A DNA stretch of 12,221 nt, taken from the NCBI GenBank assembly GCA_013375475.1, contig JABXKD010000094.1, positions 1-12,221 of the forward strand, read 5' to 3'. The translations under genes were made by a program, and so were the position numbers. Shown piece by piece: positions 7,656 to 10,165 of this stretch; position 1 is the stretch's first letter; the number at the start of each line of letters is the position of its first letter. The notes beneath the pieces were generated by a model that worked only from the letters and a program-made list of their open reading frames with translations, was not told where the DNA came from and ran no database searches. This DNA is from Promethearchaeota archaeon (lineage in GTDB: Archaea > Asgardarchaeota > Lokiarchaeia > Sigyniarchaeales > SOKP01).

Positions 7656-9656
7656 TTGTCTGAAAAGCAGACCATTGATAAAATAAAAATAGGAGTTTAC
7701 GTGTGTAGATGAGGTGTTAATATTGGAGCCCACCTTGATTGCGATGCCGTTAGAGATTTTGTTGAACCATTACCTAATGTCGTTATAGCAAGAACAAATA
7801 ATTTTACTTGTAGCGATCCTGGACAACAAATTATTAAAAATGATATCTTAGAATTAGGCCTAAACAGAATAGTTGTTGCAGCTTGTACGCCTAAGATACA
7901 TGAACCCACTTATCGAGCTGTGCTACAAGAAGCAGGTTTAAGCCCGTATTATTTTGAAATGGTAAACTTAAGGGAACACTGCTCTTTTGTGCATCAAGGA
8001 GATAAAGATAATGCTACAGAAAAAGCAAAACGTTTAGTTCGAGCCGGAATAAACAGAGCAAGAGAATTAGAAAATGTCCCATACAAAGAAATTTCCGTAG
8101 AAAGAGCAGCGTTAGTTATTGGTGCGGGAATTGCCGGGATGAACGCGGCATTAGATTTAGCAGACCACGGGATACAAGTGTATTTAGTTGAAAAACAAGC
8201 TACTATTGGAGGAAAAATGGCCCAATTAGATCGAATCTATCCTACCGACGATTGTGGCATATGAGTTCTTGCCCCCATAATGGTAAACGCTTCAAAACAT
8301 CCTAATATAGAACTTTTTACTTATAGCGATGTCATTGAGTTCAGTGGTATTACTGGTGATTATAACGTTAAAATCCGCAAAAATCCAAGGTATGTTAACG
8401 AAAGTAATTGTACTGGATGCGGATTGTGTTCTACTAAGTGTCCTATAAGTGTTCCTAATGAATTCTACAGTGGAATTGGTGAGAGAAATGCTATATACAT
8501 CCCATTTCCCCAAGCAGTTCCAAAATATGCTGTAATGGATAAAAGTGTTTGTATTGATTGCAAAAATTGAGAACGAGTTTGTCCCGCAGAAGCTATCGAT
8601 TTTGAACAAGAACCTGAAATCGTTCAAGTTAAGGTGGGTGCAGTGATTGTTGCTACGGGTTATGATCAATACCCAATTATTGAAACTAATGATTATAATT
8701 ATGGGATTTATCCAAACGTTATTACTCAAATTGAATTAGAAAGCTTGTTAAGCCCAATAGGACCAACTGGAGGGCATATATACAGAATAACTGACGGAAA
8801 AACACCAAAGACAGTCGTAATGATCCAATGTGTTGGTTCTAGGTCTTTAAAAGCCAATCCCTATTGCTCCATGGTGTGTTGTAATGTTGCTCTTAAAAAT
8901 GCTCAACTATTGAAGCAGGAATATCCGGAAATGGATGTAATTATATTTTACATTGACATCAGAACTACTGATAAAGGCAACGAGGAATATTACAGAACAA
9001 TAAGGGAAGCTGGTGTGCGAATGATTCGGGGAAAAGTAGGCGAAATCAAAGAAGATGAGGATCATAATTTAATGGTTCGAACCTATTCATCTCTAACTGG
9101 TGAACTAACCAAGATAAAGGCAGATATGGTAGTTTTATCTACTGGAATGAACCCTTCTAAAGGGACTGAGGAAGCAATTGAAGTATTAGGTTTAAGTAAA
9201 GGACCTAACGGCTTTTTGTCTGAAATTCATGGTTGTTTGAAGCCCCAAGAAACTAAAAACATGGGTATTTACATCTGCGGAAGCGCTGCAGGGCCGAAGA
9301 ACATACCCTATTCCGTTTCTACAGCTTTAGCTGCTGCAAGTAAAGCTGCTGCTTTGCTCTCTCATAAAACTATTACACAAGAATTAATTATTGCAGAAGT
9401 CGATGAAACTTTATGTATAGGTTGCCATAGATGCGAAAAGTTATGCGAATACGGAGCAATAAGCGTAGATAAGGATGAAATTGCTAAAGTGGACGATTTG
9501 AAATGCAAGGGATGCGGAGTATGTATTTCTTCATGCCCAGCTCGAGCAATTGATTTGAAATATTATCGAGATCGTCAATTCGAGGCTGAAATCAAAGGAA
9601 TCGGTAATACTGAAATAGACGAGATAGCAAAAAAAACTATTAAAATCGAAAATTAG
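7656..9656 (+). CDS. hdrA: Heterodisulfide reductase subunit A (FAD/Fe-S), selenoprotein with three Sec (U19, U203, U305); 666 aa
   Basis: One frame runs from TTG 7656 to TAG 9654-9656. TGA occurs at 7710 (IGVYVCRUG, cf. VCHCG), 8262 (PTDDCGIUVLAP, cf. DCxxCIL.P) and 8568 (CIDCKNUERVCP). Other motifs: GAGIAG Rossmann, AACTP, NLREHCS, QCVGSR...YCSMVCC and a C-terminal 2x[4Fe-4S] domain. Confidence 0.95.
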
Positions 9657-9677
9657 AATGATATGAGAAGATAAAAC

Positions 9678-10088
9678 ATGACAGAAAATGTAAAAGAGCG
9701 AAAAATTATAGCTTTTGGATGTGAAAAATGAGGCTATTCTGCGGCAGATCTAACGGGTACTACGAGAAAATCTTACTCTACTAATTTCCATTTAATTAGA
9801 GTAAAATGTACTGGAAGAATAGGAATCCATTTAATAATGGAGAGTTTTCTTAATGGTGCTGATGGAGTAGCTATTATCTCTTGAAAAGAAGGAGAATGCG
9901 AATTTGGAAACGGAAATATGAACACTTTCGAGCATGTTAAGTTTTTAAAGAGACTATTCAAACACTTGGGTCTAGCAGAAGAACGAATTCAACAATACTT
10001 CTGTTCAGCAGCTGAAGTTGAAAAATTCATTAAATCTGTAGAAGATATCACACAAAAAGTAGGACTTCTCCCTCCTCTACCAAAATAA
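9678..10088 (+). CDS. mvhD: MvhD/VhuD [2Fe-2S] hydrogenase delta subunit, selenoprotein with two Sec (U18, U69); 136 aa
   Basis: Missing from the ORF track. Translation: MTENVKERKIIAFGCEKUGYSAADLTGTTRKSYSTNFHLIRVKCTGRI...NGADGVAIISUKEGECEFGNGN...EERIQQYFCSAAE...LPPLPK. TGA at 9729 and 9882 fall on the Cys positions of CxxC and GCxxGxC. Confidence 0.94.
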
Positions 10089-10095
10089 AAATAAA

Positions 10096-10165
10096 TCCGA
10101 ATTAGGATGATCCTTCTAAAAAACTCTAGTTAGAAGGTAACTAACTCACTGCATGGGTTTTCGGA
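10096..10165 (+). promoter_or_regulatory. Putative SECIS element (eukaryote-like kink-turn type) in the 3' UTR of hdrA-mvhD
   Basis: TTAG(10102-05)/CTAA(10141-44) helix; G-ATGA-T core (ATGA at 10107-10110); perfect 8-bp stem CCTTCTAA/TTAGAAGG; 10-nt loop starting AAAA; 3' core T-AA; outer helix TCCGAA/TTCGGA. Confidence 0.75.

Follow-up and report, generated by a model that had tools for sequence, protein, structure and literature searches.

A Lokiarchaeia hdrA-vhuD selenoprotein gene pair with five in-frame UGA codons and a single downstream SECIS element

In Lokiarchaeota, it has been proposed that several UGA codons in two adjacent genes are decoded as selenocysteine (Sec) with the help of one selenocysteine insertion sequence (SECIS) element. 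As set out in passages of Mariotti et al. (2016, PMC4989117), only one such element, the lokiSECIS, is present, downstream of VhuD; HdrA always ends in UAA or UAG, and a polycistronic model with a shared SECIS is put forward to cover as many as six UGAs across roughly 2 kb. The relevant sections of Huang et al. (2024, PMC11227280) describe the same arrangement across Asgard genomes. According to the parts of these papers and of PMC9622424 that deal with the question, the evidence in Asgard archaea is sequence analysis and the experiments described are confined to Methanococcus maripaludis; a 2026 review contributes no Asgard experiments. Here we analyse a stretch of 12,221 nucleotides (nt) from contig JABXKD010000094.1 of assembly GCA_013375475.1, referred to hereafter as the window, with reading frames translated with TGA read as U. 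A sequence-only reading of the window had proposed that one element recodes five UGAs in hdrA and mvhD (here vhuD), and had regarded this as the new part. The observation is real and the interpretation well supported, and both have been in print since 2016 (passages of Mariotti et al., 2016, PMC4989117, and of Huang et al., 2024, PMC11227280). We conclude that hdrA-vhuD is very probably a Lokiarchaeia-type selenoprotein pair, in which the five UGAs would be decoded as Sec via a single SECIS on what is most likely a bicistronic mRNA.

The arrangement bears on the origin of the eukaryotic SECIS system and presents a mechanistic puzzle, in that a single 3' element would recode UGAs for ribosomes on a different, upstream cistron. 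Our additions are modest. The arrangement is confirmed in one more genome, with a uniqueness control and with absence of the element around homologs of MvhD that contain only cysteine (Cys); Sec/Cys alternation is documented at two of the five sites; and a fuller, three-helix description of the SECIS, a tRNA-Sec gene with two introns and a candidate small membrane selenoprotein are provided. The window itself makes cross-cistron recoding no more testable than before.

The two genes, the gap between them and the five in-frame UGAs are as follows; TGA counts refer to the comparison of related pairs described below.

7656-9656, plus strand: hdrA, 666 codons, TTG start, TAG stop, three Sec codons
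7710-7712, plus strand: UGA, predicted HdrA Sec19; Cys in 9sfi_A; TGA in 15/15
8262-8264, plus strand: UGA, predicted HdrA Sec203, the canonical HdrA Sec position; X (Sec) in 9sfi_A; TGA in 15/15
8568-8570, plus strand: UGA, predicted HdrA Sec305, in a ferredoxin-type Cys motif; Cys in 9sfi_A; TGA in 6/14 orthologs
9657-9677, plus strand: intercistronic gap of 21 nt, with a purine-rich Shine-Dalgarno-like stretch ahead of the vhuD ATG and without a SECIS
9678-10088, plus strand: vhuD/mvhD, 136 codons, ATG start, TAA stop, two Sec codons
9729-9731, plus strand: UGA, predicted VhuD Sec18; X (Sec) in 9sfi_K; TGA in 15/15
9882-9884, plus strand: UGA, predicted VhuD Sec69; X (Sec) in 9sfi_K; TGA in 12/15, Cys in 3/15

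The hdrA product carries Pfam Fer4 and Pyr_redox_2 domains and matches PDB chain 9sfi_A with an E-value of 1e-220. It also matches positions 1-644 of the NCBIfam HdrA2 model at 825.6 bits. That this is less than the curated cut-off (1100) reflects the design of the model, which describes an HdrA-MvhD fusion. Judged by these matches, the first frame is a heterodisulfide-reductase subunit A-like flavo-iron-sulfur protein, and it combines the HdrA fold and domains with UGAs at Cys/Sec positions, including the canonical site near residue 200. The second frame matches Pfam PF02662 (FlpD; E 3.5e-37, 127.6 bits), NCBIfam VhuD (129.1 bits), positions 645-768 of the HdrA2 model and PDB chain 9sfi_K (E 6.9e-28). 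By the same kind of evidence it is VhuD/MvhD, an iron-sulfur subunit of the FlpD family, with two Sec/Cys positions about 50 codons apart in its FlpD domain.

Conservation of the UGAs was assessed in the window, in 13 further orthologous pairs from species-level genomes of the same genus (n=14 with the window) and in a paralogous pair on contig C221 of the window's own genome, making 15; one genome (G003), in which hdrA and vhuD lie on different contigs, was left out. The five in-frame TGAs are present exactly where the sequence-only reading had placed them (7710, 8262, 8568, 9729 and 9882). Alignment put all five on Cys or Sec columns of the solved 9sfi HdrA and VhuD chains, in agreement with its claim that they occupy conserved Cys positions. 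Two sites, HdrA U305 and VhuD U69, alternate between TGA and a Cys codon among orthologs; at U305 a Cys codon is found in 8 of the 14 orthologs and in the paralog, and TGA in the other six. Such alternation in a fixed column is classically taken as a mark of Sec, and the placement of five UGAs at Cys/Sec columns is, on these alignments, more than chance. The stop of hdrA at the homologous place was TAA or TAG in all pairs compared (n=15). In the window, the operon stops TAG, TAA and TAG (the third at 11710) and the TGA stop of cofC (4588) are likewise as had been claimed.

The genome has the Sec-decoding trait of the archaeal/eukaryotic type, with tRNA-Sec, PSTK, SepSecS, two SelD and SelB all found, which settles in the affirmative a check suggested by the sequence-only reading. 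SepSecS scored 380.9 bits, and the PSTK-like protein gave a full-length match of 167.8 bits (NCBIfam curated cut-off 290.5). Two tandem SelD genes (G000:C155:1918-4218, minus strand; 197 and 161.7 bits) contain one in-frame TGA each. A different, longer AUGA..GA hairpin (type II-like) follows the upstream SelD copy. An archaeal SelB was reached via PF00009 candidates; its best PDB match was 4ac9 (E 4.5e-88), and it scored 227.2 bits against TIGR00475 (cut-off 242.25). PF21131 matched no SelB here and none in the control genomes, and was thus uninformative; PF25461 matched only that of E. coli.

The tRNA-Sec gene, with a UCA anticodon, lies beside SepSecS at G000:C230:26819-26975, minus strand (locus L001, 2885-3031). 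Routine whole-genome scans with RF01852 and with ARAGORN, with and without introns, reported no tRNA-Sec gene; it was located by blastn with tRNA-Sec genes of the same genus. Once two inserts were allowed, it matched RF01852 end to end at 35.3 bits (E 2.7e-5; gathering score 47). One insert, of 28-29 nt (29 nt here), follows CUUCAA in the anticodon loop, and the other, of 31 nt, lies in the T loop. The same two-insert gene was found in five further genomes (5/15 of the same genus), and when the six were aligned the exons did not vary whereas the inserts did, a pattern that introns of a working tRNA-Sec gene would give. The exons match intronless tRNA-Sec genes of the same genus that score 62-64 bits. 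A tRNA-Sec above the Rfam cut-off was seen in 15 of 26 related genomes, including 6 of 15 of the same genus, and we attribute the apparent absence of tRNA-Sec from the clade to the two introns. Passages of Mariotti et al. (2016, PMC4989117) report a 31-nt T-loop intron in the Loki tRNA-Sec, a feature common to both; the second insert, in the anticodon loop, distinguishes the gene described here, since those passages mention only the T-loop intron.

These data also bear on the possibility that the UGAs are true stops in pseudogenes or truncated products, that they are sequencing or assembly errors, or that TGA is generally reassigned. Gene callers do render such genes as fragments, and the routine scans did miss the tRNA-Sec. 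However, both frames stay open over their full length (666 and 136 codons), every TGA in them falls on a Cys/Sec column, and both frames and TGAs are kept in orthologs from 13 species-level genomes. Contigs from two DNA studies (X1, probably the source study, and X4) agree with the window at each TGA that they span: pieces from X1 span 7710, 8262, 8568 and 9882, those from X4 span 8262, 8568 and 9882, and no variant is listed at 9729. TGT or TGC, the outcome that would have spoken for errors, was thus not seen where these contigs cover the sites. A third study contributes contigs from two RNA libraries (X5 and X8), which include parts of hdrA with the TGAs at 7710, 8262 and 8568 intact (7710 in X5 contigs; 8262 without difference in X5 and X8). 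General reassignment is contradicted by the TGA stop of cofC, and stops or errors are at odds with a conserved, intron-bearing tRNA-Sec and the remaining machinery. We regard this explanation as hardly credible.

Directly after vhuD lies an element with the following parts.

10093-10167, plus strand: lokiSECIS or eSECIS-like element, type I, 75 nt, found with covariance models R1 and R2
10097-10101 with 10160-10164, plus strand: lower stem, CCGAA/UUCGG
10107-10110, plus strand: AUGA at the end of the internal loop, invariant in 23/23 aligned elements
10111-10119 with 10130-10138, plus strand: upper stem, nine stacked positions with U.U at the base
10120-10129, plus strand: A-rich apical loop of 10 nt, beginning with A-runs
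10139-10140, plus strand: 3' core AA
10143-10147 with 10155-10159, plus strand: side hairpin of five pairs

The element begins 5 nt past the vhuD stop and its AUGA 19 nt past it. Counting back from this AUGA core (10107), the first of the five UGAs is 2397 nt away and the last 225 nt. The SECIS-like hairpin that the sequence-only reading had seen after mvhD, about 2.4 kb from the first UGA, is part of this 75-nt structure. The 3' flanks of 15 orthologous vhuD genes could be aligned over about 76 nt (MAFFT). In this alignment 91.9% of 285 cells were paired and 10 of the 19 pairs had changed on both sides; none of 500 shuffles reached the observed values, and slid registers paired at 26-55%. R1, the covariance model built from this flank alignment, found elements outside its training set at 34-52 bits, behind paralogous vhuD genes, behind a small UGA-containing open reading frame (ORF) and at the start of a contig. 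Across 18 non-training elements 91.9% of positions were paired and 16/19 pairs were compensatory, in an alignment fitted to the model, which favours the structure. Among the 15 orthologs the 3' core dinucleotide was AA in 12 and GA in 3, and the apical loop measured 10 nt in 7, the window's subgroup, and 11 nt in 8. The core may adopt a kink-turn-type fold.

With filters off, R1 gave one strong match in the whole window, 87.7 bits (E 1.5e-20) at 10093-10167; the next best, 12.0 bits, was on the other strand, and the best within hdrA on the plus strand were 9.3 and 8.5 bits. R2, a shorter model restricted to core and upper stem and trained on 23 elements from several genes, gave 61 bits at the SECIS and 10.4 bits at the next best position. 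A covariance scan for additional elements, the check proposed alongside the original idea, thus returned one only, with models that are genus-specific. The gap between the genes, 21-29 nt across 14 orthologous pairs, was correctly described as free of a SECIS: here R2 scored only 7.6 bits (E 3.2), and the AUGA inside the gap is not conserved among orthologs. Each of the 13 ortholog loci and the paralog of the same genome had one strong match, always after vhuD; as these matches are training data of the model, the informative part is the absence of others. No match at E <= 1 was obtained in 11 loci around Cys-only MvhD homologs. The whole-genome scans with R1 and R2 scored 150 of 5717 and 150 of 9281 first-look candidates, and are no census of SECIS elements.

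In the model that we favour, one bicistronic mRNA would cover hdrA, vhuD and the 3' SECIS. SelB/EFSec, possibly with an adaptor, would bring Sec-tRNA to ribosomes at all five UGAs, and the SECIS would act up to 2.4 kb upstream, across the hdrA stop and the vhuD start. We infer co-transcription of hdrA and vhuD on a single mRNA from their 21-nt spacing and from the lack of any second detectable element; on the same grounds, the SECIS would act on the hdrA UGAs and one element would suffice for both cistrons. The same type of element stands directly behind other UGA-containing ORFs of the genome, namely the pair on C221 and a small ORF on C224. In Methanococcus experiments, an archaeal 3' SECIS tolerates distances of 520-679 nt (PMC9622424). 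By analogy these would be compatible with the distances in the window, but they are much shorter.

The SECIS might instead serve vhuD alone, the hdrA UGAs being recoded through a separate signal in the 5' untranslated region, near each UGA or overlapping the vhuD coding region. R2 does not recognise the SECIS types of other genera and might therefore overlook a divergent one. In a codon alignment of 14 orthologs, hdrA codons 1-19 show the least synonymous variation, with another dip just after U305 (codons 311-326, z -2.6), and a hairpin, UCUG-N5-CAGA at 7659-7671, and a block at 7540-7577 are kept among orthologs. These dips are, however, shallow: the lowest windows, at the starts of both genes and just after U305, reach 0.28-0.33 against a mean of 0.46, gene starts are where such dips are usual, and there is neither a deep trough nor one of 70 nt. 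Two further scans were non-discriminating and stayed at background level in hdrA. A sliding 75-nt thermodynamic scan of 7450-10250 placed the SECIS window lowest (z -3.19, 273 windows), with others at -3.04 and -2.86; a loose kink-turn/hairpin pattern scan gave 4 matches in hdrA against 3.9 +/- 1.9 in shuffles. The other UGA genes examined in the genome have a SECIS directly after their own stop, and hdrA genes never do. No hdrA-specific element appears in the portions of the two published surveys that cover the pair (Mariotti et al., 2016, PMC4989117; Huang et al., 2024, PMC11227280). We therefore consider a separate hdrA signal improbable.

Several points weigh against the shared element. 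R2 returned 0 matches in 8 loci of other genera with TGA-containing vhuD, showing that both models see only the SECIS type of this genus; they would overlook a recoding element of another kind within hdrA or ahead of it. Synonymous variation at hdrA codons 1-19, before the first UGA, is the lowest of all (z about -3); we attribute this to the translation start, though a local element there is conceivable. RNA-library contigs contain parts of hdrA and 48 nt of vhuD, with next to no coverage of 8905-9650 and 9783-10500. No contig runs across 9657-9677 or extends to the SECIS, and DNA may be present in libraries of this kind. A Sec-containing hdrA followed by an all-Cys vhuD, the combination with which sharing could be tested by comparison, does not occur among the pairs compared in the 26 genomes sampled. 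The SECIS is without an Rfam match: scans of the whole window and of 9600-10300 alone returned no SECIS family, including RF00031, at E <= 10, only matches at chance level. Its 3' core is AA instead of the canonical GA and its apical loop has 10 nt, compared with the 11 reported for lokiSECIS; the AUGA_AA core fits the broadened definition [A/G]UGA_[G/A]A and not the strict GA criterion. Finally, the PSTK match is under its NCBIfam cut-off.

A further question is whether the SECIS is 3'-terminal at all. It would be intercistronic if hdrA, vhuD and the next gene formed one operon, with the element between cistrons 2 and 3.

10219-11712, plus strand: FrhB/FdhB-like F420-interacting iron-sulfur flavoprotein with an N-terminal 2x[4Fe-4S] domain, PF04432/PF04422, TAG stop at 11710

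This gene, whose product belongs to the NCBIfam FrhB subfamily (280.4 bits), is on the same strand and starts 51 nt past the SECIS, in a conserved arrangement. No clear oligo-T terminator follows the SECIS; a T4 run lies within the lower stem and is not conserved. HdrA and VhuD match the fused HdrA2 model, and FrhB is a plausible partner. Against a three-gene operon stands an AT-rich block (ATTAAAACAACC) that is conserved some 30 nt ahead of the likewise conserved ATG at 10219; a Shine-Dalgarno sequence is missing there. This suggests that the FrhB-like gene may have its own promoter and a leaderless mRNA; its probable start, ATGAGTT, is kept among orthologs. We hold the three-gene operon to be a tangible possibility, less probable than its converse. 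HdrA and VhuD jointly span the fused HdrA2 model NF040770 (1-644 and 645-768) and the F420-binding FrhB-like subunit comes next, an order suggesting that HdrA-VhuD-FrhB may be an F420-linked, not a hydrogenase-linked, HdrA2-type module.

The favoured two-gene, one-element arrangement agrees closely with the Lokiarchaeota pair as described in passages of Mariotti et al. (2016, PMC4989117). Common to both are the order hdrA-vhuD on one strand with a very short gap, a multi-Sec HdrA including a position near residue 200, a two-Sec VhuD, a single element after vhuD with AUGA before a stem of nine positions (U.U at its base in the window) and an A-rich apical loop, an hdrA stop that is never UGA, and complete Sec machinery. 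The window differs in its AA core and 10-nt loop, and in a conserved lower stem and side hairpin of which the text passages, figures and supplements aside, make no mention. Set against the Asgard eSECIS-like type I elements in the sections of Huang et al. (2024, PMC11227280) that treat them, nothing essential is different; those sections report the AUGA_AA variant in Lokiarchaeia/Helarchaeales hdrA/frhD as well as multiple selD genes per genome. The window pair is, to judge from them, most likely an instance of that class.

With the eukaryotic type I SECIS (RF00031, SECIS_1) the element shares a position 3' of the coding region, action at a distance, an AUGA core between a lower and an upper helix, and an apical loop that is A-rich and unpaired. 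It differs in having AA rather than GA, in that one element would serve two cistrons, and in a further hairpin, to the side, that its 3' strand forms between core and lower stem. According to passages of Mariotti et al. (2016, PMC4989117), Asgard archaea have no known SBP2. Selenoprotein P, as also summarised in those passages, likewise has several UGAs on one mRNA recoded from 3' SECIS elements, with one ORF and two such elements, whereas here there are two ORFs and one element. The VhuD and HdrA of Methanococcales (9sfi, 5odc, 8rvu) are orthologous, with Sec at the canonical HdrA and both VhuD positions; there HdrA has one Sec and the SECIS is of the euryarchaeal GAA_A type, whereas the window HdrA has two further Sec at Cys positions of Fe-S motifs.

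The comparison raises a broader reading of the structure, in which the SECIS of this genus would go beyond the published 9-bp-stem hairpin and form a three-helix junction, made up of a lower stem, a kink-turn-type core that carries the upper stem, and, on the 3' strand, a conserved side hairpin whose loop is often GNRA-like. The extended architecture could be a docking platform for an archaeal SECIS-binding factor, enabling action over 2.4 kb across a stop and a start, and would also flag an unannotated family of membrane selenoproteins of about 64 residues. We offer this as speculation and think it rather doubtful as a whole. The three-helix element recurs behind unrelated UGA-containing genes of the genus.

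A second hdrA-vhuD pair in the genome (G000:C221:8793-11240, plus strand) has four UGAs in hdrA, two of them at the positions of Cys52 and Cys77 of the window HdrA, two UGAs in vhuD, and one SECIS after vhuD. With six UGAs per element in this pair, the five-UGA pair of the window is not the extreme case in the organism. Sec-containing hdrA fragments were also seen on contigs C281 and C30.

The small ORF at G000:C224:4539-4733, minus strand (locus L070, 1563-1757), encodes 64 codons with a single membrane pass, one in-frame UGA and the motif GGGU-x(1,3)-C near the C terminus, and has a SECIS of the same type directly behind it. Homologs with one TGA each occur in 10/15 genomes of the same genus, and R2 matched at E <= 0.01 in 10/11 loci, the window genome's own included. 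The corresponding public proteins are 47-residue truncations annotated as hypothetical, or read-throughs with TGA as W; no Cys form was present among the 11 matches. It falls outside the seven Asgard selenoprotein families named in the sections of Huang et al. (2024, PMC11227280) that list them, and is a candidate for a previously unrecognised selenoprotein. A database homolog of one of the proteins noted here on the side is labelled Promethearchaeota. A SECIS of the same architecture stands at the start of contig C50 (G000:C50:38-106, plus strand; 48.6 bits), its gene cut off, and a weak look-alike without AUGA was seen at G000:C240:222-301, plus strand (27.6 bits, E 0.01).

Upstream of hdrA, the conserved block at 7540-7577 (CCAGAAAAAATAAATTAATTCAATAATTTCCAAACA) is probably a promoter or regulatory site. 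A GGUGA sequence is doubled ahead of the hdrA start codon (7626-7671 region), and the small UCUG-N5-CAGA hairpin falls in the same region. A minus-strand frame at 726-1034 with one TGA, together with a weak R1 match at 381-434 on the same strand, was considered as a possible extra selenoprotein and rejected: its translation gives no sensible protein, an AUGA is lacking, and Alba is encoded there on the plus strand. The remaining genes of the window are these.

2-439 and 1101-1436, plus strand: two HIT-domain ORFs
649-954, plus strand: Alba
1515-1748, minus strand: archaeal histone
3319-3804, plus strand: Ras-family small GTPase
3862-4590: cofC, TGA stop at 4588
4597-5829, minus strand: 410-residue ORF between cofC and serS, no Pfam or NCBIfam match
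5848-7131, minus strand: seryl-tRNA synthetase (serS), divergent, about 520 nt upstream of hdrA

Seryl-tRNA synthetase is the enzyme that loads serine onto tRNA-Sec, and its position beside hdrA is probably a coincidence. The gene surroundings, with the Ras-family GTPase, histone, Alba, HIT-domain ORFs and serS, are typical of an Asgard archaeon.

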